From a virus: 64,000 bases of DNA. Positions 17,642 through 64,000 of this stretch are shown here, one piece after another. Numbering within the stretch: position 1 is the first letter of the stretch; each line of letters starts with the position of its first letter. The stretch lies in IMG/VR virus record IMGVR_UViG_3300045988_073563; one strand, written 5' to 3'. A program made the translations under genes and the position numbers. The notes under the pieces were generated by a model that was not told the DNA's origin, made no database searches, and worked only from the letters and a program-made list of their open reading frames with translations.

Positions 17642-18664
17642 ATGAAAAGATATAATAATTTATTTGAACAGATTGTTAGCTTAGACAATCTACGTCTAGC
17701 TGAAAAGAAAGCTAGAAAAAACAAGACTCACAGACCAGAAGTTATTGAGTTCGATAAGAATAAAGAACAACTTCTGTTAGAGTTATAGAAAATGTTAATC
17801 GAAGGTACATATGTAACATCTCCGTATTATGTCTATAAGATATATGAACCTAAAGAAAGAGAAATCTTTAAGTTACCTTATTATCCAGATAGAATAGTAC
17901 ATCATGCTATAATGAATATTATGGAACCTATATGGGTATCAACCTTTGTAAAAGGAACATATAGTTGTATTAAGAAACGTGGTATCCATAAAGCAATGAA
18001 AGATGTTAAAGAATCTTTGAAAGACATATAGGGAACTCAATATTGTCTAAAGTTAGATATTAGAAAGTTCTATCCTTCAATAGACAATGATATACTTAAA
18101 CAAGTAATAAGAAGGAAGATAAAAGATACTAAGCTATTGAACTTGTTAGATGGTATAATAGATTCTGCGCAAGGAGTTCCTATCGGTAATTACTTATCAC
18201 AATTCTTTGCTAATCTGTATTTAACTTATCTAGATCATTATATTAAAGAAGTTCATAAGATAAAACACTATTTCAGATATGCAGATGATATTGTAATATT
18301 ACACAGTGATAAGAAGTATCTTAGATATCTGTATGAAGATATTAAAAGTTATCTAGAGAATCAACTTAATCTAAGGTTCAAAGATAATTGGCAGATATTT
18401 AAAGTAGATTCTAGAGGAATAGATTTTGTAGGTTACAGATTGTTTCATACACATATACTTCTTAGAAAGAGAATCAAACAAAGCTTCTGCAGAAAGATAA
18501 CAAAACTAAATAAAAAAGATATTGATAAGGATGATTATAAACAAAAAATATGTAGTTATATAGGTTGGATTAAACATTGTAATGGAAGGAATTTATTCAG
18601 TAAAATGTTGAAATATAAAGAGCTATTAGAATACGTTAACATCCATAGACCAAGTAAAACATAA
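17642..18664 (+). CDS. DGR reverse transcriptase (340 aa)
   Basis: ATG at 17642. Listed ORFs 17792.. and 18137.. are in the same frame, joined by TAG 17786-17788 and TAG 18029-18031. TAA stop. Motifs: [14 protein letters not shown] (DGR-type [I/L]GxxxSQ) and YADDIVIL. Confidence 0.9.
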
Positions 18665-32993: not shown

Positions 32994-32994
32994 T

Positions 32995-41900: not shown

Positions 41901-44900
41901 AAGATTAAAACAACTCCGAAATACTTTATTTGGAGACAAAGAAGCTCTATTTGATGCGATAAATGCAACATTATAGGATAAAGTCCAAGAGGAGATAACA
42001 TTCCTAGTAGATAAAGGAATAGTAAGAAGAGATGGTACAGAACTTGAAAATGTATTACTACCTACAAATATAGTGAAAGAGTATACAGATAGATCTAAAA
42101 ATCTAACCTCTGGTGATACATCTAGGAATAACAAGTCTGCTGCCGTTTATTCTATTATCGCAAATCATGTAGTAAATGAAATAGTATCTATAAATGAAAT
42201 TGAAAAAGCATTCGTAGGAGATCCTGCTTACTATAAATGGAAGAGAGATAAAAACAAACCATGGATAATAGTAGAAAGATCTGTAGATAAAATTAAACGT
42301 CTTGGTTCTGTATTGTCTACTGGGGATAATCTTAGAACTTTTTGGGGAGATGGAGATGTAAGAAATAATTCTAAATTTACTGTATTACACATGAGTGATA
42401 ATATGGTCAAATCTGTAAAATTCGATGAATACAAAAAGATGTTTACATCTGCTGAAGTAATGAAATATTTACAAAGGAAGAACCCTAACATTAGTCAGAG
42501 GCAACTTATTAATATGGTAAGTAAGGATAGTATTAATAAGACATTAAAAACTATTGACGCTAAATCAAGAAAATCAATTGAAGATTCTGTGGAAAGACAA
42601 ATCGCAGCATATGGGGTTAACAACAGAGGAGAAGGTAATATAAATTAGGCGGATGCTGCAGTTTATATTAGACCAGCCTTATATAAGAGAATTATCCAAG
42701 CTGTAGGAGAATGGTCACCAGAAGTTGAAACGGCTTTTGAGCTTTTAGAAAGTGATAATCAAGAGTGGTTGTCTGATCCAAAACAGTATGCTCAAGCTTT
42801 GGAAACGCTTATTAAACCATTGAAGATGGTGTACTTCGGAAATCACAACTTGACTAAGTTAGGTTTGAATGTTCCAGTATTTGATAAGATGGCAATATTC
42901 CCATTATTTAAAGTAATGGCAAAAGCTGATAACTATCATTTATATCAAAGAATGAACAATGATGAGCTGGGAACCATAGATATGCTTACGTTTGAATCAG
43001 CAGTTAAAGTGGGAGGTAGATAGAAATTTGCTCCATATAAAGATGCAGATAATTCTAGATTTAATATAGAAGATTTAAATAGACCTTCTACATCTACAGT
43101 AGTTGAAGAAACTAATTTCGAAGGTTTAGATACTGATAATTCTAAGTTACCTACATATATACAAGATCTTAGAAATTTACGTCTGTAGATGAACACAGAT
43201 CCTCATGAAAGCGTAGATAGATCTCTAGGTACGCAGTTTGCCAAAGTAGCCTTAAGTAATTTAATAAAAGATAGACCATATGGTTTAAATAAAGATGTAG
43301 AATACACCGGTAGATAGATTATAGATAATATATTTGGAGCTATAAATAGATTATCTGACATTGGAGCTCAAAAAATATATGATGAATTCTTAGAAGATGG
43401 TAAACCTTCTGAATAGAAACTATCTAAGTTCTTAATATCTCAAGGAAAATCTAGTGGTTTATCAAGAGATGCTTTATCTTCATTTGAAATAGACAAAACT
43501 ACTAGACAAATCAAGGTACCTTTGTCAGCCCAAAGTAATAGAAGATTTGTAGAAAGTAGAATAATATCAAGAGTAGGAAAAACTGCCATTGATATTAATA
43601 CTCCCGGTGGATCCGCTATCCAACATGCATTCTTTGGATTTAAAGATACTACTGGAGTATAGAAGCAATATCAAGTAGGTAGAGCTTTTAATGATGGTAA
43701 GCCTTTAAATCCTCTTAATAGCGATGGTAGTATGGATTGCATGTTGAGTACTAATTTCTTTAAACATATAGTTCCTAAGAAATATGCTTCTGATTATACT
43801 GCTATGAGAGACTGGTTGTTAGATAAGAAGATAATTGGGCAAGATGCTAAACCTTTTGCATTAGGTTATCGTATTCCAACTCAGGGTCTTTCTTCTACAT
43901 GTTCATTAAGAGTTACAGATGTGTTACCAGAATCTATGGGGGATGTTATAGTAGTTCCAGATGATTTTACTGCTATGACAGGATCTGACTTTGATATTGA
44001 TAAGCTATATATAGCTACAGGTTATTATGATAAAGATGGAAATTATTTGCAATGTAATTGGGACGATTTATCTAGTAATTCTGAAAAATAGCTTGTTAAT
44101 GGTCTGATAGACATGTATAGAGTTGCCATATCAGATGATAGTAACATTGATCAAAGTAGAGCACCTCTGGATAATCTTACAACTAAAGTAAAAGAAGAAA
44201 TAGTTCCTTTAGTTATGGGTAAATCTAAAGAGGAATGCAAGCCTATGTATGAACTCCTTCCTTCTTATTAGTTATTTAAGAAATTTGAATATACTGGAGG
44301 TAAAGATGGTATTGCTCCGTTTGCTCTTGCATCAACCAATCATGCTCTTACTCAAGCTCTAAACTTAAAAATGGATCTTGGATCAGTAGGAGATACATAT
44401 AATTTAGGGAATATAAATGATGTATTGTCACAAGATGGTGAGAGAATATTGGATTGGTTATCTGCAATGATTAACGCCCATGTAGACGTTGCAAAAGATC
44501 CATACATTATTAATCTTAATGTTAATTCTGTTACATATAGTATGACAGAGTTCTTGTTAAGGACTGGAAAAGGTGAAGTAACATTTTATTTCTTATCCCA
44601 ACCAATACTTAAGGATTTTGCCAATACGTTGATAAAGCTTAATGGGCAATATGGAGTAGATCCTAGTGATGTTAGTTATTCTGAGCTCATGGATGATACT
44701 TTATTTGAGTTGAAAAAATAGTATAAAGAAGAAGCGGAAGAATACATAAGTACTCTACCTAAAGAAGAACAGAAGAAGTTGCTAAATATATTGGATAATT
44801 GGGACGATAAAGATAAAGGAGTTGACAAATCATTAGCAGTAGATCCTTTAAAACTTGAAAAATCTTTGAACAGCAATATAAAAGGAGAGAGAAATCTTGA

Positions 44901-46758
44901 TTTCTATATTCAACAACTATTAGTAGCAGACGCTTATTCTAAAATGTTGCCATATGCTGAAAGACTAGCAAAACTAGTAAGATTATCTCAGATAGATACT
45001 AAAAAATATGGTAATACTCTATCACAACAGGCTAACTATAGCAAATAGGTATTTGACTTTATAAGAAAAGAAGGAGAATAGTTTTATCAGGTAGATGATA
45101 AAGGTTCTGTTATAGAAGGAGATGATGTAAATGCTTTAATGAACTACTATGTTGACAGTTTTCTAATGAAGAAACTTACTAATGCAGTAGATATTCCAAG
45201 AAACATACTATCAAGTTCGTTCTTACAAGCTACAGATATGTACAGTGGAATGTTCGTAAGTCTTGCAAATGTTATAACAGGAGATAGATCTAATATGAAC
45301 AAACAAGTTGCTACTAAATTAGATTCTATCATAGATAGTATTATAAGATCTAGAATAGCAAATAGTATAGAAGAAATGCATCTTGACGATGGAGAATATG
45401 CTAGAATGGTATTAGGTGATTGGACTGTTCCTAAAAGACTGTTTCAATTTAAAGCAGCTATTAGAAAGAATGATAATGGTAAATATAGTAGCATGTTAAC
45501 AGGAGATGGAACTATTAATAATTCATTCTTAAATTACTTAGTTCCTACTGTAGCTACTGATCTTACAGATACGGATTCAATAACTTTGTTGAACAACTCT
45601 ATGAGTAACAGTGCTAATTTCGAAAATAGACTTATAGCATACTTTAGTGATTTATTACAAAGTGACAATGAAGCTGTTAGAAAGTTCTCAAAGAGATTGG
45701 CTAAATACGCATTCTACACTTCTTACGATAATAAGAGTCCAAATTCCTTTGCTCATTTAATATCTAGTCAATATAGATTAGATACAGGGTATGCTGATGA
45801 AGTGAGAAGAACTATTCATGACATGAATAATGGTAGTTGGTTAAACAACATACTTAGCGATATTGATGAACCTACGTTAAGTAAGTATACTTCTTTAGCT
45901 ATGATAATAGCTCGTAACAACGCTCATGATCATGAAATAGTTAAGAATGTAACTAGACCAAAATCAAATTCTGGTAATTCATCTGCATTTATATATGAAA
46001 CAGCTCCTTGGAATGATGAATCTCAATATTTAGTTAGTTTCGCTACTAAGTCAAGGAAAGATGAAAGAGATTTCTTAGCCATTGATTATCCACAAGGTAA
46101 TAGTAGAAATACTGTTTTATATGTTAAAGCTGGTAAAGTAGAAGCATACGATAAGAAGAAAGCTAAGAAATTAGGTCAAGCTACACAAACTATATATGTA
46201 GCAATACCAAGATTAGGTAGAACTAAAGGTAGTGTCAACTTAAGTGAATACTTCAAAGATTACAATCAATTATCAGACTTTTCAGAAAACAATATTAATA
46301 CAATGACTGGCGAATAGATTATAGAGTATTTTGGTGATCATGAAAAGTTTAGATTAGCTGTGAAAGGATCTAATTTTAGCGATGTGGATATTACATTCCT
46401 ACCAAGTCAGTATATAACGGAAGATTTTGTATTTACTAAAGATCCATACAATCAAGAGGTGAACAATAATGAACCTACTCTTGAAAGTAATACTCCTAAA
46501 ACTGTAGCTATGGAAAGCAAGAAAATAGATAAAGAAGTTGCAGCAGAATCTGGTTTACTTAATAGAGATAATTTAATGAATAAAGTACAACAACAATTAT
46601 TAATAACTCAAGCATTGTCGGAAGCTGATATTCAATCAGATCCGTTATCTGGAGTAGAATCATCTGGACTTGATATTACAGGCATGTTTACAACAGAAGA
46701 TGATTTAAGTAAAGATAATTTTTCAGACGAAGCATTTAACATTTGTAAAAGTAAATAA
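32995..46758 (+). CDS. giant multidomain virion polyprotein (4587 aa) with RNA-polymerase-like DFDID motif and an HExxH motif
   Basis: ATG at 32995. Twenty-one listed ORFs from 33241 to 46360 are all in frame 1. I read every gap: 46 in-frame TAGs, no TAA/TGA, and TAA at 46756-46758. Contains GYRIPTQG...GSDFDIDKLY (DFDID at 43987-44001) and YHEAWHYI (39397-39411). Confidence 0.8.
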
Positions 46759-51428: not shown

Positions 51429-51433
51429 AAATA

Positions 51434-51457
51434 AAGGCTACCTAATAAGGTAGCCTT
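51434..51457. terminator. bidirectional hairpin terminator between the convergent late and early modules
   Basis: AAGGCTACC-taataa-GGTAGCCTT, a 9-bp perfect stem, followed by CTTT on + and by a T-run on the other strand. Confidence 0.75.
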
Positions 51458-51487
51458 CTTTGTGTATGAAAATTGGAGGTTTTCACA

Positions 51488-51958
51488 TTATTCTAGAATA
51501 GGATCTTCTAATACATCACCTACAGGAATAATCTCTTTAATTTCGTGAAAATTATTAGTAAATATAATATCACCTATATTACTATCAATTCCACTGAATA
51601 GATTCCAAATAGTCTTATAATCAGAATTAGTAAGTCCAGCAGGACCGTTACTAATAATATTATCATATCTATGTTTAATTTCATTAGGAAGTGTAAACAC
51701 AGCTATTTCATACCAAACATCGTTTATACGAATTTGTCTTAGACTATGAAAGAATTTGTTCTTTTTTAACTCGAACTCTAGATTTAATAAATCTGCAACT
51801 GTATTTTCTTTATACATTATGAATACATGATTATCAAAATATGGTTCATCAGGATATTCTGTATATACATTTATAAAGTTCTTGTTAATTAGTTTTTTGT
51901 TATCTACAATTAACTGCAGTAGACATGCAGATGCTTCATTCAAGTTCTTCAGTTCCAT
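51488..51958 (-). CDS. hypothetical protein (156 aa)
   Basis: Intact ORF with a TAA stop. Last gene of the - strand operon. Confidence 0.6.
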   Translation of the reverse strand: MELKNLNEASACLLQLIVDNKKLINKNFINVYTEYPDEPYFDNHVFIMYKENTVADLLNLEFELKKNKFFHSLRQIRINDVWYEIAVFTLPNEIKHRYDNIISNGPAGLTNSDYKTIWNLFSGIDSNIGDIIFTNNFHEIKEIIPVGDVLEDPILE

Positions 51959-52922
51959 CTTCTTCGTAATATTTACGAGTATGGTCCCAATTACCTGTCT
52001 GATAATGATATGATATTTCTGTTAATGCTTCTGCTATTAGGTCTTTGCGATCCAACAACTCTTTTTCATTTAACATATTAAAAACGCGTACTTCATTATT
52101 ACCATTACTCTGAATAGCAATAATATACGCTTCTAAATCATATTCTTCTATATCATAGCCTTCTTCCTTAAAATACCAAGTAAGAGCTAATATATAGAAT
52201 GCAATTTGTCTATAATAATCATATTCCTCTACAGAATGTTTAAAATTATAGACATCTGCTGTTGTTTTTAAGTCAATTAATGTAATCCTTCTATTACAAT
52301 GATCAATCTTAACTCTATCTAATAGTGACTTACAGGATACATTTGCTTTTTCATATTCCCAATTTATATGAAACTCATTGTTACATTCTAAACCGGGCTG
52401 GTTTGTTAGTAATTCATTTGCTTTCTTATGATTCTCTATGTTCTCCTTAATATGTTTAAGCATAGTTATATCAGCAAATGAAATTACTTTTTTGTTATTC
52501 TTTTCGAGCTTAAGGTATACAATATATTCTGCGAATGTTTCAATAATTTGCTTAGCTTCTTCTAGCTTTTTATCATCTGATTTACTATTGCTATAAGCTT
52601 TGTTATAACTTTTAAGCAATAACTTGTCAGTATCCTCTAGAGGGTTTACTACTAGTTCTTGAACATATTCTATACATAATGTTTTTTGCTGATTTACTTT
52701 AGGTACTACAAAGTCTAACACTTCATAGTTATCCCAAAATTCATCAGGTTGAAGTAGGTACATATGTATCATAGTTCCTTTATCAAGATACTTTCCACTA
52801 ATACCTTCTTCTTTACCATCAAGCATATCCTTGAGGTAACGTGGTCCCTTCTTCAAGAACCAACCTATTGCTGAATTTGATATTCGCGTGTTATCTTCAT
52901 AATACGGAATTTCTATTTTCAT
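51936..52922 (-). CDS. PD-(D/E)xK family nuclease (RecB/Cas4-like exonuclease)
   Basis: ITLIDLKTTADV (D...DxK-type) followed by RQIAFYILAL (QxxxY). TGA stop. Confidence 0.6.
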   Translation of the reverse strand: MKIEIPYYEDNTRISNSAIGWFLKKGPRYLKDMLDGKEEGISGKYLDKGTMIHMYLLQPDEFWDNYEVLDFVVPKVNQQKTLCIEYVQELVVNPLEDTDKLLLKSYNKAYSNSKSDDKKLEEAKQIIETFAEYIVYLKLEKNNKKVISFADITMLKHIKENIENHKKANELLTNQPGLECNNEFHINWEYEKANVSCKSLLDRVKIDHCNRRITLIDLKTTADVYNFKHSVEEYDYYRQIAFYILALTWYFKEEGYDIEEYDLEAYIIAIQSNGNNEVRVFNMLNEKELLDRKDLIAEALTEISYHYQTGNWDHTRKYYEEDGTEELE

Positions 52923-53821
52923 GCTGCTGTTTTTGTTTCTTCAAATACGTTACTATCTACAATGAAATCTTCTTCTATTATATTAGTGTCAGTAACAAAG
53001 TTTCCTGAAGTATCCCATTCAACTTCATCTTCCTTTACAGGAATTTCTGTACGTAGTTCTTTTAAATACTCTTGTATAATATTATCCAATTTATTTAAAG
53101 AAATTTCTACATCTTGTGTGAAATTAGATATTGTTTGTAATCGTAGAAGAATCTCATCTATGATTTCTTGTCTTTTGTCTTCAGTCATAATATCTATTGT
53201 TACTATTTTTAAGCCTTTTTTAAAGTTATACCAATCATCTAGTATAGAGCAATTATGTTGCCCTAGATGTCCGTATGATATACCATCATGCCAATGTCCA
53301 AACAAATGATGTTTGTACTTTCCATAACTATAATAATATAGTTTATCATTATAATTAGGATTATCATGAGTAAGTAGTATATCACATTTAGGTATTTTTT
53401 CGAATGGATTATCATCTATTTCATCAGTAGGATATTCAAATGCCCATCTACCTTCTTGAAACTCAATAGGTTGTATCCAAGGAGTTCCATAGAAGGTTAT
53501 ACCTTCATATGTATATGACTCATCCACTAAGAATCTTACTTTTCCATTAGTATAAAGTTCGTAGTCTTCTACAAAACTTTCCCATTCATCACCTAACTTA
53601 CTTTCTATGTAAAAGTCATGATTACCGGGCACTACTAATATTTTTTTACAAGGTAGTTTATCTACCCATTTTGCAAATCGTGTCTGCCACCACTTTAGTG
53701 AAGCATCCATAGATCTTTGTTCATTTAATGGAATTATATCTCCACAAATGCACAAAACATCACACTCAGGAATATTATTGTAAAGATTCCCGTGTATATC
53801 ACTAATTCCACATATTTTCAT
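52919..53821 (-). CDS. calcineurin-like metallophosphoesterase
   Basis: ISDIHGN, GDIIP, VPGNHD and GHWHDG motifs. Confidence 0.7.
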   Translation of the reverse strand: MKICGISDIHGNLYNNIPECDVLCICGDIIPLNEQRSMDASLKWWQTRFAKWVDKLPCKKILVVPGNHDFYIESKLGDEWESFVEDYELYTNGKVRFLVDESYTYEGITFYGTPWIQPIEFQEGRWAFEYPTDEIDDNPFEKIPKCDILLTHDNPNYNDKLYYYSYGKYKHHLFGHWHDGISYGHLGQHNCSILDDWYNFKKGLKIVTIDIMTEDKRQEIIDEILLRLQTISNFTQDVEISLNKLDNIIQEYLKELRTEIPVKEDEVEWDTSGNFVTDTNIIEEDFIVDSNVFEETKTAA

Positions 53822-53872
53822 ACTGTAGAAATTTAGTAAGTTTATAAATAAGTATTGAATAAAATAGTATCA

Positions 53873-54712
53873 TTAGATTATATCTTCATCTATTTCATCC
53901 TCATCAGAACTATTAGTTCCTGTTCTTATTACTCCATTTAAGCTAAGATTCATATCTTTAGCTAGTTTATCTAACGGAATATCTTCGAAGAGAACAACTT
54001 CATCTAAGAATGCTGAAATATTATCAAATGATTTAACTTCCATATGTTCGATGATGAAGTTCACAACTTCATCTATGTTCTTTATTCCTTTATCTTCTGC
54101 CATATAGCGTACAAATACAGAATTAGAATTTGCTTCATATTCTTTAAAATAACGAACACGTGAACAACGATCAAAGAAGTTATCATCTATTTCATCTGTT
54201 TTATTACAGGTCATCAATACTAGTTTCTTTGATGTAGCTTCTACACCATCTAAGAATCCTAACAGATCCTTAGTTTCCCACCAATAACTATTCTTCTCAA
54301 TTTCGTCAAACATAACTACTACAGGAGTAGTAAAATGTTTAAAGAAACTAGTGAGTTTATTAGCAGGATAGTCGTTTGCGACTATAATAATAGGTAAATT
54401 ACTTTCTAAGGCAATACGTTTAGAGAGCATTGTTTTGCCTGTACCTTTAGTACCAGCAAGTAATATACCTGTTGTCTTTCCAGAATTTTCGGAATTAAAA
54501 TAATTAAGTACGCGTTTGATAAATTTATTATCTTCTTCTAGTTCATATAATTTCTTTGGCATGTTCAAATCTCCATTCTCTTTGAGATAAGATCTTCCCT
54601 GCATTCTATCATACTCTAGATCGTATACTTTATTATTTATGAGCTCATAAGAAATACCTTCTAACTTAGGTTTAACTGTAATCTCATTTCCTATTTTAAT
54701 AAATTCTGCCAT
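53873..54712 (-). CDS. AAA+ ATPase
   Basis: Walker A LLAGTKGTGKTML and Walker B VVMFDEIE. Confidence 0.7.
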   Translation of the reverse strand: MAEFIKIGNEITVKPKLEGISYELINNKVYDLEYDRMQGRSYLKENGDLNMPKKLYELEEDNKFIKRVLNYFNSENSGKTTGILLAGTKGTGKTMLSKRIALESNLPIIIVANDYPANKLTSFFKHFTTPVVVMFDEIEKNSYWWETKDLLGFLDGVEATSKKLVLMTCNKTDEIDDNFFDRCSRVRYFKEYEANSNSVFVRYMAEDKGIKNIDEVVNFIIEHMEVKSFDNISAFLDEVVLFEDIPLDKLAKDMNLSLNGVIRTGTNSSDEDEIDEDII

Positions 54713-54724
54713 AACTGTAATTTT

Positions 54725-55117
54725 TTATGTTTTTAACTTGTTGACCAATTCATCAACTTGTTTTTGCGTATGTACTATATAATAATCTATATCTAGATTA
54801 TTTATATACAAATAATACTTAAAAAGTTTTTCACGCAAAGCCCATGCATCATTTGGATAGCCTTTGCATTCAATAATAAACTTATCACCTACAAAATCAG
54901 GTTTATAAGTTATTGCTCTATATTTCTTATCACCAAAAGTAAAAGCTGGAAGCAGTTCGTATCGTTGAGTTTCATACTCAGCTTTGATATTCGACTCTTC
55001 CAGCTTCTTATATGTATATGTCTCAAGTTTGCTTTTAAACTTAATACCATTATACTCATTTGGTGTTGCGTTACGAATTTTACTTTCGCTAGGTTTATTT
55101 CTTTTCCTCTACATCAT
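54725..55117 (-). CDS. DUF1064-like nuclease (Holliday-junction-resolvase-like fold), 130 aa; needs TAG read-through at codon 3
   Basis: The - strand reads ATG ATG TAG AGG AAA..., giving MM(Q)RKRNKPSESKIRNATPNEYNGIKFKSKLETYTYKKLEE...ITYKPDFVGDKFIIECKGY...KLF. TAA at 54725-54727. There is no ATG/GTG/TTG after the TAG, so it is absent from the ORF track. Confidence 0.55.
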
Positions 55118-55250
55118 TAGTAATATTAGATTTTCTGGAAATAGTTTTCCTTTTATGTCCAAAGGTAATGAAAAAATTACTATTTACTAATTTAAATGGA
55201 AAAGCTAATATATTCCACAATCCTTTAGAAACATAATTAAAGATATTCAT
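55095..55250 (-). CDS. small hydrophobic protein (51 aa)
   Basis: Its ATG overlaps the TGA of the upstream gene (ATGA). TAA at 55095-55097. Overlaps the start of the DUF1064-like gene by 23 nt in another frame. Confidence 0.35.
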   Translation of the reverse strand: MNIFNYVSKGLWNILAFPFKLVNSNFFITFGHKRKTISRKSNITNDVEEKK

Positions 55251-55819
55251 TGTTTTATGTAGTTTTTTATGAAATTTGCTAGTTTATCAATAGATACAAA
55301 ATCATAATTTGCAAAACTGCTATCAATACCGACATCTATACGAATGTGATCAGGAAGTTCTGCTGAATTTTGTAAATCTACTGAACCATGGCAATGACCA
55401 TGAAGCATTATACTACCTTTTTCAATGTGTTCCCAAGAGAACATAGGAAAATGGCACATAATTACTTCAATATCTTTTGGTAATGATGGGAACACAGTTT
55501 TCTTAAATCTCATATTCTTTATCTGAGTAATATGATTGAAGAAACATCTGTGATTATCTGATACTTTATCGTGGTTTCCTAAGATAAGTATTTTATTACC
55601 ATTTAATCTTTGGAATAATTTTCTCTTTTCATCCGCCGTTCCGAATGCAAGATCTCCTAGGATATATACAGTATCATATTTATCAATTCTACTGTTCCAC
55701 TTTTGTATCATCTTTTCTGTTACTTCTTTCATATTATTACCAAATATTTCTTTCCGTTTAGGATGAAAATCTAGTATTCTATCATGAAAGAAATGCCAAT
55801 CTGCTGTGAACCATATCAT
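55247..55819 (-). CDS. metallophosphoesterase (second copy, 190 aa)
   Basis: DWHFFH, GDLAFG, GNHD and HGHCHG motifs. Confidence 0.7.
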   Translation of the reverse strand: MIWFTADWHFFHDRILDFHPKRKEIFGNNMKEVTEKMIQKWNSRIDKYDTVYILGDLAFGTADEKRKLFQRLNGNKILILGNHDKVSDNHRCFFNHITQIKNMRFKKTVFPSLPKDIEVIMCHFPMFSWEHIEKGSIMLHGHCHGSVDLQNSAELPDHIRIDVGIDSSFANYDFVSIDKLANFIKNYIKQ

Positions 55820-56787
55820 TTGTTAATATTTTTAGTTAACCAATTTTTCACTTTATCAAATCCATTAGCTTTTATAGCATCAGACACATCTTTTGCTCTA
55901 AACTTTTTATGGATTAGCATACCTTCTAAGCCTGTTTTCTGGCTCATTTTACGGAGATATTTCACTCCAGCTTCATCTCTATCAAACAATATAATAATGC
56001 GTTTAAAACGCTTCTTAAGTTGTTCTAGAACTCTATCAGGTATGAATGTAGATTCAGATGAAGGTGAGATAGCTGGTATACCCATCTCATATAGGCACAT
56101 AACATCTTTCATACTTTTGGTTATAACAAGTATATCTCCTGTTTTAGGTAATTGTTTATAACCCTGAATGTCTAATTCAGTTAAGTTGTTACGCCATTTT
56201 GTATATTTGTCTGCATATGGTTTATATATCTTAAAGTGATTATATACCTTATATGCATACATAGGATTTTCTTCTTTGTAAACGCTTTTTACTATGCCGT
56301 TACATAGGTAGTACTTTATACTACTTACTCCAAACTTCTTTAATGTTTCTACCTGTATATTAAACTGCTTCCAGTAATTGATGTCAGTATCAGTAAATTC
56401 CTGACGTACTACACCAATTACTGTTTCAGTTGACGGTATATATTGCTTAGAGCTATCGAGATGCGTACTACTAGTAATTTTAAGTTTGTTAACTATATCA
56501 TTTAGAATATCTGAATAATTAGTTAAACCTGTTATTAAGGATACGAATTTGATAACATTACCACATTCTCCTGTACCATGATCTTTAAATAACAACTGTT
56601 TAGTCTTTCTACTATAGAAACAACCAAACGATGGTGTTTTATCTTTTCTCAATGGAGAATTATAAATCATGCCAACTTTAAAATTGCCAATATACGCTGC
56701 ATATATATCATACTCACTTACTCTAGATAGTATATAATCTAAAGTAATAGTAACTTCTTTTTTTATTTTGTTAGTATCAAAAACCAT
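55816..56787 (-). CDS. DNA primase (DnaG-like zinc-binding region plus TOPRIM)
   Basis: KDKTPSFGCFYS...GECGNVIKF resembles the DnaG EKTPSF/zinc region. ILFDRDEAG is TOPRIM-like. Confidence 0.75.
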   Translation of the reverse strand: MVFDTNKIKKEVTITLDYILSRVSEYDIYAAYIGNFKVGMIYNSPLRKDKTPSFGCFYSRKTKQLLFKDHGTGECGNVIKFVSLITGLTNYSDILNDIVNKLKITSSTHLDSSKQYIPSTETVIGVVRQEFTDTDINYWKQFNIQVETLKKFGVSSIKYYLCNGIVKSVYKEENPMYAYKVYNHFKIYKPYADKYTKWRNNLTELDIQGYKQLPKTGDILVITKSMKDVMCLYEMGIPAISPSSESTFIPDRVLEQLKKRFKRIIILFDRDEAGVKYLRKMSQKTGLEGMLIHKKFRAKDVSDAIKANGFDKVKNWLTKNINK

Positions 56788-56802
56788 ACGATATATTGTT
56801 AG

Positions 56803-56924
56803 TGGAAGCTGCAGGATTCGAACCTAAATGTTATTAAACATTTGCTCCTTAGAGCGCATCTATCAATTTTCAAACTGATCGTATTTACCTTTTCAGAGTC
56901 GTACGCCTCATATGCTAAGCTTCC
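56803..56924 (-). tRNA. tRNA-like gene A, 122 nt (non-canonical: too long, no clear D or anticodon arm)
   Basis: The - strand reads GGAAGCT-TA-...-TTAGG-TTCGAAT-CCTGC-AGCTTCC-A. Perfect 7-bp acceptor pairing and a consensus T-loop. Confidence 0.5.
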
Positions 56925-56933
56925 TTATATTAA

Positions 56934-56994
56934 ACGTAGGTTGTGTACTATTCGTAATCACTCATTTTTCATAGTGCGGTACACTAACCTACGT
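56934..56994 (-). ncRNA. long imperfect hairpin (15 bp plus 1 bulge, 30-nt loop) between the SSB gene and tRNA-like A
   Basis: On the + strand ACGTAGGTTGTGTAC (56934-56948) pairs with GTACAC-T-AACCTACGT (56979-56994). The loop contains an inner CACT/AGTG stem. Confidence 0.5.
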
Positions 56995-57043
56995 GTTCGT
57001 CGTATTATGCCCGACGTGGCGACTTTATATAAATCCTAACAGA

Positions 57044-57670
57044 TTAGAAAGGTAGATCGTCAGACGGAGCTTCCTGTTTGACTTCTAGAGGATTAACTTC
57101 TACAGTCTCTTTGTCAGATACTACCGGCTTAACGAACAAATCTATACCTGTTATTTCTCGTATCATGCTTTCATTTTTGCCTTCTTCATAGAATCCCATA
57201 GGGATATTCATAGGCTCAATTGCTGCAAATTTTACATAACTTGGAAGTGTAGTATATCCATCTTTATTATAGACAACTTTCACTTTCAACAATGTATCTT
57301 TATTTGCTGCATTCAGCATAGCAACTACCCAGTTAGTGAATTCTTTATAAGAACTACCAGTGAAGTTTAATACTTCTTTAGGATAGAAACATCTCAAGAT
57401 ACGATTAATTCTTGTAACTTGATTCGTTGCTTTATTCTGATTTTGTTCTTCAGTATCTTCTACACGTTCTTTAGGTTCCCATTCTGTATGAACAAGTTCC
57501 TTACCATCTTTCTCGAATCTAAATTCAATGAAATTCTTCCCTGTTGGAGATACTGCAGTTTTCACTGACGTAAATTTAACATTATCGTGAATACCTGCTT
57601 CAAGGTATTTAGTATTATTACTATTATTAGTTAATGTTACTTGGTTTGCTAAATCTGTACTATAAATCAT
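57044..57670 (-). CDS. ssDNA-binding protein (acidic SSB-type tail)
   Basis: C-terminus ...QEAPSDDLPF matches the DDD(I/L)PF tail of bacterial and phage SSBs. Sits in the replication operon. Confidence 0.55.
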   Translation of the reverse strand: MIYSTDLANQVTLTNNSNNTKYLEAGIHDNVKFTSVKTAVSPTGKNFIEFRFEKDGKELVHTEWEPKERVEDTEEQNQNKATNQVTRINRILRCFYPKEVLNFTGSSYKEFTNWVVAMLNAANKDTLLKVKVVYNKDGYTTLPSYVKFAAIEPMNIPMGFYEEGKNESMIREITGIDLFVKPVVSDKETVEVNPLEVKQEAPSDDLPF

Positions 57671-57691
57671 AACTATTTGTTTTGTGTTTTT

Positions 57692-58432
57692 TTATTCAGG
57701 TAAATATATCTTATCCCAATAAGTAGTGATTTCATTGTTTTCATCACTCTCTGCTACTACTATATTCTTTCCTCTCAAGTGAGGAGCTCTAGCTTCTATG
57801 ACGGAATTATCTCCACCTTCAAAAGAAATATGAGTTTCATTTTTCTTTCTATATACATAGCCAACAGCATCTGCTTCACCACATATAATATTTGCTAGTG
57901 CACCTACTAGATCAAGAGACATTTCAGACATTTCTTCGCCATTCTTATTAATCAACTTATCTCTAGTATGACCAATAAGAATAAAGTTATCACATAATCC
58001 TCGGAACATGTCAATAACTTTTCTTACAGCTTGTCTTATATATAAATAACCAGATCCATTAGGCAAAGTTCTGAGGTCTGTACCTTCATACTTCTTGCCC
58101 ATTGGAGTAGCTTTATATAACTGTATAGCAAAGCTCATACACATCTCTTCTAGTCTTGATGCATTATCAATAGTAATATACTTATAGGGTTTCTTACCTT
58201 CTTTCTTAATTTCTTCTCTTATTGCATTTGCAATTTCACCTAAATCATTTACTGATCTAGCTTGAATAGCTAATGCCTCTAAGAATTCAGAACCACCTTC
58301 TAGATCGACAATAAGATTACTATCCAATCTAGATGCTAAGGTAGTTTTACCTGACTTTGGTTTGCCAAATAATATCAAGAATCTAGGATTCTCAACTCTG
58401 GCTTTTAATTTCTCTTTTGGTAATACAATCAT
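57692..58432 (-). CDS. RecA-fold ATPase (AAA_24/Sak4-like)
   Basis: Walker A ILFGKPKSGKTTLA. Size and position are typical of phage Sak4-like recombination ATPases. Confidence 0.6.
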   Translation of the reverse strand: MIVLPKEKLKARVENPRFLILFGKPKSGKTTLASRLDSNLIVDLEGGSEFLEALAIQARSVNDLGEIANAIREEIKKEGKKPYKYITIDNASRLEEMCMSFAIQLYKATPMGKKYEGTDLRTLPNGSGYLYIRQAVRKVIDMFRGLCDNFILIGHTRDKLINKNGEEMSEMSLDLVGALANIICGEADAVGYVYRKKNETHISFEGGDNSVIEARAPHLRGKNIVVAESDENNEITTYWDKIYLPE

Positions 58433-58505
58433 AAAGCTAGTTTATTTTATGTATCCCTCTGATAAATATCTGATAATTTCTGCTAGTTATGGGATTTATA
58501 TGTTA

Positions 58506-59021
58506 TTAGAACCAACCATTATTCTTTACTTTAATAGTAAGATTAATAATTGTTTTCTTTGTTTCTGGTTTCAAATAATTCAATGAACCCGGAGCGATTG
58601 GAATGATATCGTATCCAATCTGTACGAAATTGTGGAAAATTTTAATCGGTGTACCGTAGATATCTTCGAAATCATAATCCAAATTAAATGGATAATTTTT
58701 CTTAGCATATGCATCAAGTGCGTCTAATGCTTTAAAGAACTCTGTTTCAAGGTTATAGTTGTCGATTTTGTAGCACTTTGAGGCAAGCGGACAATTAGCA
58801 CAAGTCTTAGGTAACCAGCTTACATTGTGTTTCTTACTCAAACCTAATGTAATAGTATCACCTGCACCTGCATATTCGATTCCAAAATTAGATTTCGGAT
58901 AATCAAATGAACTGTCAATAGTCAGCCACGGATATGCTGTAATAATGCGTTCCATCAACGCATCTTTATAAATCTTTGCACTATTTTCTTTCTTCGGTAA
59001 TGTAAATGTATATGTTTTCAT
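58506..59021 (-). CDS. hypothetical protein (171 aa)
   Basis: Intact ORF with TAA stop. Confidence 0.6.
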   Translation of the reverse strand: MKTYTFTLPKKENSAKIYKDALMERIITAYPWLTIDSSFDYPKSNFGIEYAGAGDTITLGLSKKHNVSWLPKTCANCPLASKCYKIDNYNLETEFFKALDALDAYAKKNYPFNLDYDFEDIYGTPIKIFHNFVQIGYDIIPIAPGSLNYLKPETKKTIINLTIKVKNNGWF

Positions 59022-59047
59022 AAATTCAGCCTTTTTAATTGTTATTA

Positions 59048-60016
59048 CTAAAACGAAATCTTCTTTGCTGGTTCTTCATTTCGTATAGTTTCAATTAAAT
59101 TATTGTATTTCAGATCGTTGTCGAATTCTAATATCGAGCATTGTCCAGCATCTCTATTCTTTATAAGATGCAGATAGACTTTGTTATTAACTGGTAAACG
59201 ATTCGGTCCATACTGTTGGATATTTAGTAATTCTGGTCTGTGAATACAAATAACATAATCGGATGCATGAAATATTGTATCAGCAGAAGAAATATCACTA
59301 CGCATTGGATAATGCATAGAAGGATTATTAATTCTATCAGGAGTTTCAATGTTACGATTCATCTGTGATAACTGTATTACAGTGGTATTAGGTAATTTCT
59401 TTACCTTAATAAACAGTTTCTGTAAATCGGAAATCACTTGCAGTGCTGACTCGCGAGATTGACCTTCAACAAGCAAAGTATGGTCAAGTATGACTATAAA
59501 TTTCTTGCCTTTAGCTTTATTCTCATAGAAGTAGTCTATAGTAGAAGCTATATCTTCAACTGTACCCGGTGTATCTACATAATATATCGGATATGACTTT
59601 ATTTGTTGAGAAGTCTCTTCGACTTTGGCTAACGATTCATTATCTAAGTCATTGTTAGCACTATATAGCTCAGCAGTAGTTAGCCTTAACTTACTACTCA
59701 ATTTTCTACCAACCTGCCTAGAACTTAACATCTCAAATGAGAAATTAAGTACTATAACATCCTGATCAGAATTTAGGTCTATTAAATCATTTTCTAACGT
59801 ATTAACAAATGATGATTTACCACTACCTGATATACCCACTATTGTATATACAGTATTAGGTTCAATGCCGCCCATACAGGCAGCATTAAACTTATTCCAT
59901 CTTGTTTTAAGAGACTTTACCTCGTGGTTCTTTCTCTTCTTAATATACTCAGTAGCTTCTTTTGTAGCTGCTGATATATGCTGGAATTGTAGTATTTTAG
60001 TAGAGATCTGTTCCAT
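59048..60016 (-). CDS. DnaB-like replicative helicase (RecA-fold domain)
   Basis: Walker A IVGISGSGKSSF, Walker B FIVILDH, and QLSQMNR (DnaB SQLNR-like). Ends in TAG followed immediately by TAA. Confidence 0.7.
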   Translation of the reverse strand: MEQISTKILQFQHISAATKEATEYIKKRKNHEVKSLKTRWNKFNAACMGGIEPNTVYTIVGISGSGKSSFVNTLENDLIDLNSDQDVIVLNFSFEMLSSRQVGRKLSSKLRLTTAELYSANNDLDNESLAKVEETSQQIKSYPIYYVDTPGTVEDIASTIDYFYENKAKGKKFIVILDHTLLVEGQSRESALQVISDLQKLFIKVKKLPNTTVIQLSQMNRNIETPDRINNPSMHYPMRSDISSADTIFHASDYVICIHRPELLNIQQYGPNRLPVNNKVYLHLIKNRDAGQCSILEFDNDLKYNNLIETIRNEEPAKKISF

Positions 60017-60563
60017 AACTATTTGTCATAATCGGTTCTTCTACTTTCATCTGTTCCTCGTAAGTCTCCCACTCATGCTGAGTGAGCCATTTCCACATAG
60101 TTTTCATATAACCTAATTTGCCAGTTAGCATTTTGTTATCTATCTCATACTTAAGACAGTTACAGATATGCTGATGCATAGCTTTGCTTTTACCGACTAT
60201 TCTGTTATATTCCTTCCTACATTTGTTTACATTTGCTCTAAGGAAACCTTTAGTTCCATCAGGGCGTATAACATAAACTGGAAATAGGTCATAGAATTCA
60301 TCAAACATAGATTTATCTTCTTTTAGAAGTTCTTCTAGTTCTTTTGTTTTCTTTATGACTGTGGTATCATCTACTACTTTGGTAGTGATTAGTTTACGAG
60401 ACTCTAACTCTTGTATTTCTTCTTCATTAACTAGGCTGAGAAGTTTCTGAATGTCTTGATTGATGGTTTGATTATCACTCAATACAAGTGTTAGGAATAC
60501 TAATTGATTCATAGATAAATCTGAAATTCTATCTAAGATAGAAGTGTCTATTTCTAAAATCAT
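59997..60563 (-). CDS. hypothetical replication-module protein (188 aa)
   Basis: Intact ORF overlapping the helicase start. TAA stop. Confidence 0.55.
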   Translation of the reverse strand: MILEIDTSILDRISDLSMNQLVFLTLVLSDNQTINQDIQKLLSLVNEEEIQELESRKLITTKVVDDTTVIKKTKELEELLKEDKSMFDEFYDLFPVYVIRPDGTKGFLRANVNKCRKEYNRIVGKSKAMHQHICNCLKYEIDNKMLTGKLGYMKTMWKWLTQHEWETYEEQMKVEEPIMTNSYGTDLY

Positions 60564-60618
60564 ATTCTCATATTATTATATGAGCTATGGTCTCTGAAAT
60601 ATATCTGATAAGCCTCTG

Positions 60619-62568
60619 TTAATCCCATAGGCTCATTTGTAACGGTTTTAATTCTCTGATTATCTTATAGGCTTCCATAATGTAATACCTATAATTAATC
60701 TTTCTCTCTTCAATTGGTTTATCGTCTAAGTAATTTAATAAAGTAACACCAGATGCAGTAAGCATATTCTGATACTGTTTTTCTGTAGGACATGGAATAC
60801 TTATATCAAAACGATTAGTATCCTTCTCTTTCCATTTCCATAAATAAGCACCATTAGTACTTGCATAGAAACGATTAGTTCTTTGTTGTTCTTTATTATT
60901 ATACTCAACATGCCATTGTTTACCAGTTTTTTCAGACATTAGAAAATCTCTAATATCTTGGCAACCTTTTATAGTTTCCTCTACTGATACTCCGTTCTTA
61001 AAAAAGTTTATTACTGCTTTCGGTATGATCTTCGGAGTTAGACCTTTCCCTAATTTCACAGTAGTAATAAACATACCCTTCTCTTTTACCTTATCATCTT
61101 CAGTAATAGCGAAGTAGTCATTTATAGCATATTGATACATAGCTTTAAAACGTTCTTCCTCAAGCGTTAGCCTAGTAAGTTGTTCCCATTCTCTGCAAAC
61201 ATTGTTAACTTTTGAATATACGTCTTTCTTAAGTAAGACAAATAATCCATCCGTGTTTGCTTGGACGATTCGACATCCTAACTGGGTTAGTTTCTCTGCT
61301 AGCATTAGTAATAGTAACTGTCCATTTATTCTGATTTGCATTACAGCGAACGGACTATAACAGAAGTTATGTTCATTCTGTAAGTTACCAGACAATCCAT
61401 TGAGAGCAAGCTTTAAGGTTTCATTTTTAACCTTATTGCCATTGTGTTTAGCTTCAATTCGCTCATCTTTAATTTGTTTATATACTTCTAGGAATTCAGG
61501 ACCTAAATGTTTAGGATAGAATTCATATTCTATTAGCATACTTGGATATAGAGATGCAACATCTATATCAATGAGCATTTCATCTTCTTTCGGAATAATT
61601 ATTTCAGGTTTATTCACTGAGTGAATTCCTCCAACTCCTACAGAATACTGTAATCCTTCAAATACGAATTTATTTTCGTATCCTTTTCTACCCGGAGATA
61701 CTATTTGACTTTTCATGTCATTTAGTACTCTAGTTAGTATAGGACTATCATATTTAATAAAAGGTAGTATAACACTATTTAATGGTATTACTGACATAGG
61801 AGATCTTAAATCTTTAATATCCCACCATGTTTGACCTGTTTTCTCAAGATACTTCTGAGTCAAGATCTTCATACCAATGTTTACACCATCTTTACTAAGT
61901 ACACGTACTCCATATTCATCTTCAATAGCTATTCTTAAGTCGATGTCTTTTTTACATCTATTGAGTAATTCCTCAGTAGAATTAACATCATTAATATTAT
62001 AATCAATCATTGAATCAATTTGATCTTCGGGCAAGTCTGCCTGCCAATCAGCAACAAATTCTTGTACATTCTTGTACTGCATTGTTACTTGAATTTCCTT
62101 CAAACCTACTCTTAACTTATTGCTATAAAGCATAGTAAGAATATCAAATGAATCAAAACAAATCATATACTTCCATTTTCTCCAAGCAGAGTTATCATCC
62201 TCACTTGAAGTAGTAATTACTTTACTTAGGTTAAATACAGATCTACAAATGTCTCTATAACCTTTATATTTCATTATATTGTAACAATCTATTATATAGT
62301 TTATAATAGCATTATCATAATGAAGATTATTATAACCACAAAATAATATGTTAGTATCTAACTTAATATCTGTAGTATATAAATCTCCGAAAGTATATTT
62401 TGTATTAACTGTATGAAAGAATTCAACTAATTCATCTAATTGATTTCTTCTGCAAGATATTTCAAATTTATGCAATTCACCTGTTTCTGTATTTTTTACA
62501 GTACAATGGAAGACATTGGGGAATACCTCAATATCATATACATAAACAATCTTATCTCGTATAATCAT
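60619..62568 (-). CDS. family B DNA polymerase with 3'-5' exonuclease domain (649 aa)
   Basis: Exo motifs YDIEVF, YNNLHYDNAII and YNINDVNST. Pol motif A DIDVASLYPS, motif B KLALNGLSGNL and motif C ANTDGLF. Confidence 0.85.
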   Translation of the reverse strand: MIIRDKIVYVYDIEVFPNVFHCTVKNTETGELHKFEISCRRNQLDELVEFFHTVNTKYTFGDLYTTDIKLDTNILFCGYNNLHYDNAIINYIIDCYNIMKYKGYRDICRSVFNLSKVITTSSEDDNSAWRKWKYMICFDSFDILTMLYSNKLRVGLKEIQVTMQYKNVQEFVADWQADLPEDQIDSMIDYNINDVNSTEELLNRCKKDIDLRIAIEDEYGVRVLSKDGVNIGMKILTQKYLEKTGQTWWDIKDLRSPMSVIPLNSVILPFIKYDSPILTRVLNDMKSQIVSPGRKGYENKFVFEGLQYSVGVGGIHSVNKPEIIIPKEDEMLIDIDVASLYPSMLIEYEFYPKHLGPEFLEVYKQIKDERIEAKHNGNKVKNETLKLALNGLSGNLQNEHNFCYSPFAVMQIRINGQLLLLMLAEKLTQLGCRIVQANTDGLFVLLKKDVYSKVNNVCREWEQLTRLTLEEERFKAMYQYAINDYFAITEDDKVKEKGMFITTVKLGKGLTPKIIPKAVINFFKNGVSVEETIKGCQDIRDFLMSEKTGKQWHVEYNNKEQQRTNRFYASTNGAYLWKWKEKDTNRFDISIPCPTEKQYQNMLTASGVTLLNYLDDKPIEERKINYRYYIMEAYKIIRELKPLQMSLWD

Positions 62569-62588
62569 AATATAATAATGTTAGTTTG

Positions 62589-62711
62589 AGTCCATGAGAA
62601 GATTCGAACTTCTAACTTAGGCATTTATTATCAGGCTCTACAGTCTGTTTATTATGATGCCAGAGGTCGTTGGAACCCCACTTTTTGTTTTGCCTATTAA
62701 ACTACATGAAC
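62589..62711 (-). tRNA. tRNA-like gene B, 123 nt (canonical acceptor, D and T arms; about 50 nt extra in the middle)
   Basis: The - strand reads GTTCATG-TA-GTTT-AATAGGCA-AAAC-A-(72 nt)-AGAAG-TTCGAAT-CTTCT-CATGGAC-T. The acceptor stem is 7 bp with one G-U. Confidence 0.55.
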
Positions 62712-62776
62712 AACCGGTGTTATTACCGACATTGCAATTAAAGAATCATATAATTATTGTATTTTGCTAGCAGATT

Positions 62777-63280
62777 TTAGGCGGCTAGCTTTACCTTTTT
62801 TATTTGGTATATCTTAGCTGTACTCTTTCGAGCAAAACCTCGATTTTTCTTTTGTCGATGACAATTTGTATGATCAACGGGTTCAGTATTATACGTACGT
62901 TTGTACGTTTCTTTGAACGCTACAAGGGAAGCTTTGTGCTTAGCCTTGTCTTCTTTGCTCTGCTTAGCAGATGCAATTTTGGCTTGTTTCATATGAATAA
63001 TCATCATATTGAATTTAGCCTGAGCAGTTGTTAACTTATTATCCTTATTGAATTGAGGATAATTAGGAGTTTGCAACTTAAAATGTTCTTTTCTAGCTTC
63101 TGCTAGTACTTTTAAGTGAGCTTTTCTTTTAGCTCTCTTCTCCTGCAATTTAGGATCATCCCACATCGGATATGTGTTCTCTCCTTTTACTTCAGGCTTT
63201 CTTCCTGAGATAGCTCTTGCAGCTTTCTTATAAGCATTCTTTGCTTTTACTATAGCTTCTATTTGTTCTTTTGTCTTCAT
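62777..63280 (-). CDS. Lys-rich basic protein (167 aa), possibly DNA-binding
   Basis: Intact ORF, very K/A/R-rich, TAA stop. Confidence 0.55.
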   Translation of the reverse strand: MKTKEQIEAIVKAKNAYKKAARAISGRKPEVKGENTYPMWDDPKLQEKRAKRKAHLKVLAEARKEHFKLQTPNYPQFNKDNKLTTAQAKFNMMIIHMKQAKIASAKQSKEDKAKHKASLVAFKETYKRTYNTEPVDHTNCHRQKKNRGFARKSTAKIYQIKKVKLAA

Positions 63281-63305
63281 ATCTTGATAATTTAATAGTT
63301 AATTA

Positions 63306-63929
63306 CTATGCTGCTGCTGCAACATTTGAATATTTCTCCTTTAACTCTTCAGGACTAGTCCATGAGAGAATAGTATCTTTAGGATAATAAGAACTTTGTT
63401 TAGTATCTAAAGGAGTAACGGACAAACCCGTTAAACTGTCTTTATCTTTACTGTTCTTATACATACTACGGAATTTAGCTTGAGCTATCTCTACTGCTTC
63501 TGTGTTACTTTTAGCAGTAATATAATCAGTAAGTAAATCTATCTCCTTATGTGGAGCTTCTTTACTTTGTTGTTTGATTATATATTGGTACTTCTTGCTT
63601 TCTTCCTTCTTAGAAGGGGATTTCATTTTTGCTAGTGCTTTCTTATTTTTAGTAAGAAAATCTACGACAGAGCTTTTTATCTCATTTTTATGAGGTCTCT
63701 CTTTAAGAAGTTCAACTTTACGTTTCTTTTCTTCTACAAAACGCATTTTGATCTCCTCATCAGTCAAATTAACTAATTTTGGTTGAACAAACAGGTTCTT
63801 TTTTACAGCACGAGTGAATTTCTTCTTCTCCGCTCTAGTATACTTAACTGTAGGATCATATCCTACTTTCTCAAGTATCTGTTTAATTTGTTCTTTCTTG
63901 GCTATCTTAGCAGCTTTATTGTCTGCCAT
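63306..63929 (-). CDS. Lys-rich basic protein; 5' end may extend past the window
   Basis: Intact ORF. The frame stays open upstream of ATG 63929 to the window edge. Ends TAG then TAA (63303-63308). Confidence 0.5.
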   Translation of the reverse strand: MADNKAAKIAKKEQIKQILEKVGYDPTVKYTRAEKKKFTRAVKKNLFVQPKLVNLTDEEIKMRFVEEKKRKVELLKERPHKNEIKSSVVDFLTKNKKALAKMKSPSKKEESKKYQYIIKQQSKEAPHKEIDLLTDYITAKSNTEAVEIAQAKFRSMYKNSKDKDSLTGLSVTPLDTKQSSYYPKDTILSWTSPEELKEKYSNVAAAA

Positions 63930-64000
63930 AGCCTTCTTTGCTACATCAGTTAAATGGTCAGCTAGATGTACTTTCTTGCTGTTACTGATGAAACCTATTA

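Follow-up and report, generated by a model that had tools for sequence, protein, structure and literature searches.

The primase gene of this crAss-like phage (family Suoliviridae) is preceded on its coding strand by a 122-nucleotide element, here called element A, which is not a decoding tRNA and appears to be an anticodon-less, tRNA-derived structured RNA inside the early (replication) transcription unit, where it would be transcribed together with its neighbours. We propose with moderate confidence that element A is a tRNA-derived "punctuation" signal ahead of the primase gene, predicted from its sequence to be cut by RNase P and RNase Z. The analysis covered a window of 64,000 nucleotides, i.e. 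the whole stretch of viral DNA, and the corresponding loci of related phages. An element with the same acceptor and T-arm design was found in front of the primase gene at all of the primase loci compared, and related elements were found at two further sites, ahead of the DNA polymerase gene and of a third gene.

Genome context and architecture of the element

The late genes of the window are located on the + strand, from position 1 to ~51,400, and use TAG as a sense codon. The ORFs add up to 15,164 aa when TAG is read as sense, compared to 9,228 aa otherwise, and a 4,611-aa ORF at 32923-46758 (+) contains 48 in-frame TAGs. A sub-threshold match to the Rfam RT-17 RNA (34.6 bits vs 40.4, E = 0.0076) and to the RT-18 RNA was observed in the late region at 17563-17645 (+); since these are reverse-transcriptase-associated motifs, a diversity-generating retroelement may sit there. 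The replication genes are on the - strand, from 51,488 to 64,000, and follow the standard code. Where the early (-) and late (+) blocks converge, a strong bidirectional terminator-like hairpin, GAAGGCTACCTTATTAGGTAGCCTT, is present at 51433-51458, and both strands have T runs there. Within the early block, terminator-like sites are scarce on the coding strand. A sigma-70 promoter scan returned 62 sites, compared to 73 in shuffled sequences, no promoter was evident for element A itself, and the shared upstream motif GCCGCYWA was not enriched (2 matches vs 1 expected).

Element A is located in a spacer of 256 nt between a 208-aa ORF and the primase ORF. The length of 122 nt and the gap of 15 nt to the primase ATG (56787-56785) that the initial annotation had given were both exact. 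The spacer folds unusually well (z = -3.25), element A folds autonomously and the leader between it and the ATG is without structure. The conserved long hairpin directly 5' of element A, with its U run, resembles an intrinsic terminator, of which cr6_1 provides a textbook example. In cr53-like phages this hairpin has grown to ~150 nt (L002 3590-3710). Above it, a small hairpin at 56998-57016 (-) has a conserved loop, GGCAUAAUA, and a stem that co-varies between genomes (CGUCG/CGACG, CCUAG/CUAGG, CGCUA/UAGCG). The coordinates of the features are given in Table 1.

Table 1. Coordinates of element A, its parts and the neighbouring features in the window
Feature	Position	Strand	Description
tRNA-like element A	56803..56924	-	122 nt; from the sequence, the Rfam tRNA alignment and the strict minihelix scan
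Acceptor stem, 5' strand GGAAGCU	56918..56924	-	Element positions 1-7; 7/7 Watson-Crick pairs with 56804-56810
Acceptor stem, 3' strand AGCUUCC	56804..56810	-	Element positions 115-121; discriminator A at 56803
T arm UUAGG-UUCGAAU-CCUGC	56811..56827	-	Element positions 98-114; T loop at 56816-56822; from the Rfam alignment
D-like stem GCAU/AUGC	56856..56915	-	Element positions 10-13 with 66-69; from the Rfam alignment and the fold
Helix P2	Element positions 20-23 with 42-45	-	Inside the D-like insert; GG in its loop
Hairpin H1	Element positions 46-63	-	Inside the D-like insert; loop of 4 nt or 8 nt
Hairpin H2 GCUC-UAAG-GAGC	56844..56855	-	At the anticodon-arm position; from the Rfam alignment and the fold
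Hairpin H3 AAAUGUU-UAAU-AACAUUU	56826..56843	-	Variable-arm-like; from the fold
Leader CUAACAAUAUAUCGU	56788..56802	-	15 nt, A/U-rich; first base C74, no CCA
Conserved long hairpin ACGUAGGUUAGUGUAC...GUACACAACCUACGU, then UU(U)	56934..56994	-	Directly 5' of element A
DNA primase ORF	55816..56787	-	323 aa; Toprim and DnaG zinc-ribbon Pfam matches; annotated primase in relatives
Element B	62589..62711	-	tRNA scaffold; 39.2 bits with the Rfam tRNA model, which exceeds its gathering score (29)
649-aa ORF	60619-62568	-	DNA polymerase by annotation in relatives

On the - strand, from 56924 to 56803, element A reads GGAAGCU-UA-GCAU...AUGC-G-GCUCUAAGGAGC-AAAUGUUUAAUAACAUUU-AGG-UUCGAAU-CCUGC-AGCUUCC-A, i.e. 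GGAAGCT...TTAGG TTCGAAT CCTGC AGCTTCC A in the DNA. Compared to a canonical tRNA, it has the acceptor stem, the discriminator and the T arm, and the sequence read-out bore out the 7-bp acceptor with its seven Watson-Crick pairs, the discriminator A and the TTCGAAT T loop that had been noticed at first sight. The exact sequence GGTTCGAATCC occurs within the T arm at 56814-56824. The T stem has 4/5 pairs, one of them U.G, and is absent from the minimum-free-energy fold. Element A has neither a canonical D arm (3-4-bp stem, 7-11-nt loop) nor a canonical anticodon arm (5-bp stem, 7-nt loop), as the initial annotation had recognised: its D-like stem encloses 52 nt, with helix P2 and hairpin H1 as the insert, and the anticodon position is taken by hairpin H2, which has a 4-bp stem and a tetraloop and contains CUA without a 7-nt loop. 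The acceptor strand GGAAGCU and H2 are both unchanged in the three allele-A sequences compared. The two hairpins reported earlier, GCTC-taag-GAGC and AAATGTT-taat-AACATTT, are both part of the minimum-free-energy fold, which includes a third one, ATCAGTT-tgaa-AATTGAT. The leaders that follow elements A and B had been described as similar, and their likeness is real when they are read side by side (CTAACAATATATCGT-ATG after an A for element A, CAAACTAACATTATTATATT-ATG after a T for element B).

Detection as a tRNA and the suppressor question

ARAGORN at its default settings detected zero tRNA genes in the whole 64,000-nt window, and Rfam at its gathering thresholds gave no matches in the window. 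Among the Rfam models that the initial annotation had proposed to search (tRNA, tmRNA and Y-RNA-like), the tRNA model (RF00005, relaxed filters) aligned end-to-end (model 1-71) with exactly 56803-56924 at a sub-threshold score of 22.6 bits (gathering score 29); in this alignment 51 nt are inserted in the D loop and a 12-nt hairpin stands at the anticodon arm. The Rfam filters are unreliable for insert-bearing elements, since the search at gathering thresholds skipped even element B, which reached 39 bits under relaxed filters, and an E-value scan of L089 overlooked all three of its tRNA-like sites. No tmRNA was found in the window by ARAGORN or Rfam. The Rfam searches showed no match of element A to plant-virus tRNA-like structures, YrlA, a group I intron or a ribozyme, and its inserts matched no Rfam family. 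Similarly, no tRNA sharing the acceptor and T arm of element A was found in bacterial and archaeal representative genomes.

The chance expectation was estimated using a strict scan, which required G-TTCRANY-C, a T stem with 4/5 pairs or more and, behind it, a strand of 7 nt whose 7/7 partner lies 40-170 nt upstream. The scan gave two matches in the window, elements A and B, both on the coding strand and directly 5' of an ORF start, compared to a mean of 0.08 in 300 dinucleotide-preserving shuffles, none of which had at least two. It superseded a looser scan of T loop and acceptor, which was noise (14 matches vs 26.8 in the shuffles).

The initial annotation had considered that element A could be a tRNA with an intron, possibly the suppressor needed for TAG decoding. 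An amber suppressor tRNA with an intron or another departure from the canonical form, decoding TAG in the late genes, would be in line with the sense reading of TAG in these genes, with the absence of an ordinary tRNA from the window and with ARAGORN run with introns allowed (-i), which at -ps90 alone called element A a 'tRNA-Pyl(cta)' with a 41-nt intron. However, this call was judged weak: its model has a D stem of 2/3 and an anticodon stem of 3 bp, and the same threshold yielded 8 calls judged spurious, 7 of them with 'introns' of 112-1583 nt. Furthermore, the CUA is half buried in the 4-bp stem with its tetraloop and no 7-nt anticodon loop is possible around it, the element shows no group I intron or ribozyme by Rfam, and relatives drop the entire anticodon arm, the anticodon itself being replaced by an insert at site B of L168. 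A canonical 80-nt tRNA(CUA) with encoded CCA is found just before the terminase gene of cr109_1, and its anticodon stem-loop is also present in 69 IMG/VR contigs, including relatives with a primase 98% identical. The DNA around the tRNA(CUA) stem-loop in those IMG/VR contigs has no similarity to the window. Such a canonical tRNA(CUA) elsewhere in close relatives thus disfavours a suppressor role for element A, which we regard as extremely improbable, and the suppressor tRNA of this phage is probably encoded in the ~35 kb of genome outside the window.

Distribution among relatives and selection on the structure

The loci compared were those of 80 IMG/VR relatives, seven GenBank crAss-like genomes and two further allele-A copies. 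The primase site (site A) was represented by 90 loci from four Suoliviridae subfamilies, and an acceptor and T-arm element was present in 90/90 of them, with its 3' end 14-26 nt before the ATG. These loci contain 53 distinct elements and 28 distinct minihelices, of 42-136 nt and with unrelated acceptor sequences; the 5' acceptor strands in the site-A and site-B tables were picked by hand for each allele type, and RNAalifold found the same stems unaided in two families. The smallest site-A elements (42-48 nt) consist of the acceptor, a 10-16-nt GG-containing linker and the T arm, and nothing more, as in the minimal allele UGAUAGU-AAUGGUUAAU-UAAGG-UUCGAUU-CCUUA-GCUAUCA. Other forms have loops of 3-4 nt or inserts of 55-115 nt. 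The GGRGUAU allele exists in versions of 124, 90, 77 and 47-48 nt, which are distinguished by the clean loss of hairpins that resemble a variable arm or an anticodon arm. Mismatches are present in a few alleles, e.g. L032, L037 and L090. In cr130_1 the primase spacer harbours an annotated tRNA-Gln and tRNA-Leu in addition to a tRNA-like element adjoining the ATG.

Genomes with a primase 98-99% identical to that of the window have a different allele, GGCAGU...ACUGCC. L009 aligns with the window at 97% identity in the flanks, with a break at element positions 4-96, and the site-A element thus behaves as an exchangeable cassette between conserved flanks. Allele A itself is rare, as three copies were found: the IMG/VR search yielded one near-identical copy, a metagenome scan gave 10 matches with one useful diverged copy (L174), and a gapped-pattern search for this allele returned unrelated tRNA arrays only.

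Site B was compared in 75 loci, in which 23 minihelix types of 58-179 nt were found, with leaders of 18-22 nt. Element B of the window has canonical acceptor, D and T arms, with 65 nt replacing the anticodon arm, and its 3' end is 20 nt before the 649-aa ORF; the ARAGORN -i call for it, a tRNA-Ser(aga) with a 39-nt intron, was distrusted. The 649-aa ORF has no significant Pfam match and may encode a very divergent polymerase. In L166 and L167 site B contains a true tRNA-Met(CAU), in L168 the same tRNA-Met has its anticodon loop replaced by ~115 nt, and some forms (58-59 nt) are without any anticodon arm. In L164 and L165 the 3' half of a tRNA-Met-derived element (T arm and 3' acceptor strand) is kept ~150 nt upstream of the DNA polymerase start, and no 5' acceptor strand was detected by the parser over a distance of 260 nt; these may be split or half elements.

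A third site, site C, is located just past the end of the window, with conserved flanks and ~56 nt to the ATG. It contains a true tRNA-Arg(UCU) in 34 loci and a tRNA-Lys in 2, and in the species of the window a 64-nt truncated tRNA-like element (L089 8031-8094, beyond position 64000, - strand side). All three sites lie between ORFs, on the coding strand of a multi-gene unit, and as true tRNAs are present there in some genomes, sites A, B and C are tRNA slots whose elements descend from tRNAs. In an unrelated phage contig, L170 (IMGVR_UViG_3300009034_004109), a tRNA-like gene at 11621-11731 (-), GGGGCGA...TCGCCCC, has its D arm followed by a long insert rich in A/T, and insert-bearing tRNA scaffolds may therefore occur outside the Suoliviridae.

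The structure of the elements was analysed by covariation, as the initial annotation had suggested. The evidence is strong for a sister allele and for site B, and underpowered for element A itself. The sister allele (alignment A1, 11 distinct sequences) forms a four-helix cloverleaf with 99.7% of cells paired and double changes in 12/28 pairs, a value that 0/500 shuffles attained, and sliding the 3' partner reduced the pairing to 51% or less. It has no anticodon loop, the loop of its long arm being 8 nt, so that the selection on this RNA acts after the loss of decoding. In the site-B family (alignment A3) the cloverleaf was recovered de novo by RNAalifold, and 8/21 pairs have changed on both sides, including 5/7 acceptor pairs and three T-stem pairs. 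For allele A, the seven-helix model is 100% paired, with 181/500 shuffles reaching the observed value in an underpowered comparison of 3 sequences. L083 differs from element A by 1 substitution inside the element and L174 by 8 substitutions and 1 indel. All of these changes are located in loops or preserve pairs, including pairs of P2 and H1: C20-G45 became U.G, U22-A43 became U.G, G50.U59 became G-C and U88-A93 became U.G, and a compensatory change converted G86-C95 to A-U in H3 of L174. G.U pairs are common and confined to the coding strand, which indicates that the structure exists in the RNA and not in the DNA.

A decayed tRNA had been the third option of the initial annotation. Its tRNA origin is supported by the true tRNAs that occupy the same slots in other genomes; the decay itself is not, as the elements are under selection. 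Element A does score below the Rfam tRNA threshold with its D and anticodon arms disrupted, and the mismatched alleles would also be expected of a non-functional remnant, but a remnant would hardly be found in 90/90 loci at a conserved distance from the ATG, with double compensatory substitutions in acceptor, T and internal helices after decoding had been lost, and with clean deletions that leave exactly the minihelix. A phage tRNA remnant in decay is thus an improbable explanation, and on the sequence comparisons the tRNA-like elements are kept by selection and are not decaying.

A predicted processing signal and its relation to known systems

The features that all these elements keep are an acceptor/T stack of ~12 bp (7+5 or 6+6 pairs), the T loop and a purine or U discriminator. 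A GG dinucleotide is present in all distinct interiors (46 + 27) and may be the D-loop partner of the T loop. The base following the discriminator is C in nearly all elements, with a few registers corrected by hand, and is followed by A or T, never by CCA. The anticodon arm, the D arm and the variable region are lost or variable. The acceptor/T-arm minihelix is the minimal RNase P substrate, and the absence of CCA permits cleavage by RNase Z. End-processing enzymes read the features that are kept, and those that are lost are the ones required for decoding. The second option of the initial annotation, a tRNA-like RNase P/RNase Z processing signal, is the best fit to these observations: the predicted signal is universal at the site, the parts recognised by the enzymes are kept and the distance to the ATG is constrained.

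According to this proposal, the early unit would be transcribed through the spacer and host RNase P would cut 5' of G1 (56924), the upstream mRNA then ending in the conserved long hairpin. An RNase Z-type 3' tRNA endonuclease would cut after the discriminator A73 (56803) and free a primase mRNA starting at C 56802, with a fixed, unstructured, A/U-rich leader of 15 nt. An A/U-rich leader would suit hosts that start translation without a Shine-Dalgarno sequence, as Bacteroidetes do. Element B would do the equivalent job for the DNA polymerase gene, and the third site is located just outside the window. Several points speak against the punctuation reading. If the upstream hairpin terminated transcription efficiently, element A would require its own promoter; the large conserved inserts (two hairpins in element A, an 11-bp hairpin in the sister allele) are unneeded for processing and hint at a further function; and the T stem of element A is weak and its covariation underpowered.

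Part of the data could also be accounted for by a cis-acting 5' structure that stays on the primase mRNA, with RNase P making at most a 5' cut. Its paired 5' end would then protect the mRNA and shield the A/U-rich landing site of the ribosome from upstream structure. The fixed distance of 14-26 nt to the ATG and an element that folds on its own in front of an unstructured leader would agree with such a function. We consider it doubtful, as any stable hairpin would serve this purpose, and the T loop, the GG and the discriminator-C74 context shared with true phage tRNAs would be left unexplained.

The inserts raise another possibility, namely a trans-acting small RNA on a tRNA scaffold, in which the chassis provides processing and stability and the insert is the payload, e.g. 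a decoy for host nucleases that target tRNAs or for tRNA-binding proteins, or a regulator. Within an allele family, the structured inserts are conserved and show compensatory changes, and the swapping of non-homologous cassettes between genomes with 97% identical flanks, with breakpoints at the element ends, is expected under diversifying selection. In contrast, many genomes have fixed an element of 42-48 nt without any insert ahead of the primase gene, indicating that the chassis alone is sufficient, a trans-acting RNA does not explain the tight spacing to the start codon, and the inserts match no Rfam family. We hold this explanation to be possible yet unlikely. Its specific form, in which the tRNA body would be the chassis for cassette-swapped small RNAs released by RNase P/Z and acting in trans, e.g. 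as decoys for host defences that target tRNAs or in regulating the expression of replication genes, is a tentative and rather questionable proposal from sequence; if it were true, the cassette exchange between near-identical Suoliviridae genomes would represent an arms race.

Few viruses of the human gut are as abundant as the crAss-like phages, and little is known of the signals that govern their gene expression. If the punctuation reading is correct, anticodon-less mimics of tRNAs would mark the replication genes (primase, DNA polymerase) throughout a whole family. Bacteriophages would then have an equivalent of the tRNA punctuation of mitochondria, and the 'pseudo-tRNA' calls in crAss-like genomes would be explained. 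This reading predicts exact, testable cleavage coordinates, and the cultured crAss001 offers a tractable system for tRNA-mRNA punctuation. The natural 42-nt elements are candidate processing or insulator parts for Bacteroides engineering, and one candidate can be struck from the search for the 'missing' suppressor tRNAs in recoded phages. In full-text literature searches, tRNA-like punctuation was not found to be described for any phage, crAss-like or other. A single preprint notes low-scoring 'ambiguous tRNA-like structures' and also Suoliviridae in which no suppressor could be detected.

Among the known tRNA mimics, the 3' tRNA-like structures of plant RNA viruses and YrlA resemble element A in imitating the acceptor/T arm and elbow without decoding. 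However, the plant-virus structures are 3'-terminal, have a CCA end and can be aminoacylated, whereas element A is internal and has no encoded CCA; in YrlA, unlike in element A, the tRNA-like module is distal and the RNA ends form the Rsr-binding stem. The 'species 1 and 2' stable RNAs of phage T4 are ~140 nt long, have tRNA-like termini and are processed with tRNAs. They can be likened to element A by description, and they lie inside a tRNA cluster, whereas element A is directly before a replication gene. The mascRNA at the 3' end of MALAT1/MEN-beta is a tRNA-like cloverleaf with a defective anticodon arm, and the use of RNase P and RNase Z on it defines the end of the neighbouring long RNA. 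It is eukaryotic and nuclear and sets the 3' end of a non-coding RNA, whereas element A would set the 5' end of an mRNA.

Ordinary phage tRNA genes, such as the array of crAss001 (L252 1683-5807), share with element A the acceptor/T-arm features, the N73-C74-(A/T) ends without CCA and the nearby ORF starts; several crAss001 tRNAs have an ORF start 1-18 nt downstream (tRNA-Asn to gp6, tRNA-Met to gp9, tRNA-Gly to gp8). Unlike them, element A has no anticodon loop, has a D stem enclosing 52 nt, scores below the Rfam threshold and is not called by ARAGORN at default settings.

The t-elements of plant mitochondria are tRNA-like acceptor/T-arm structures in which the decoding parts are dispensable. 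In mitochondrial punctuation, as stated in PMC3790967, tRNAs between the ORFs of a polycistronic RNA are cut by RNase P and RNase Z, which generates the mRNA ends. The phage elements resemble both in lying at ORF boundaries and in keeping the minihelix while the decoding parts are dispensable. They differ from mitochondrial punctuation in belonging to a bacteriophage, which would use the bacterial RNA-based RNase P for the cleavage predicted here, in being placed 14-26 nt from start codons, and in their large structured inserts and their exchange as cassettes.
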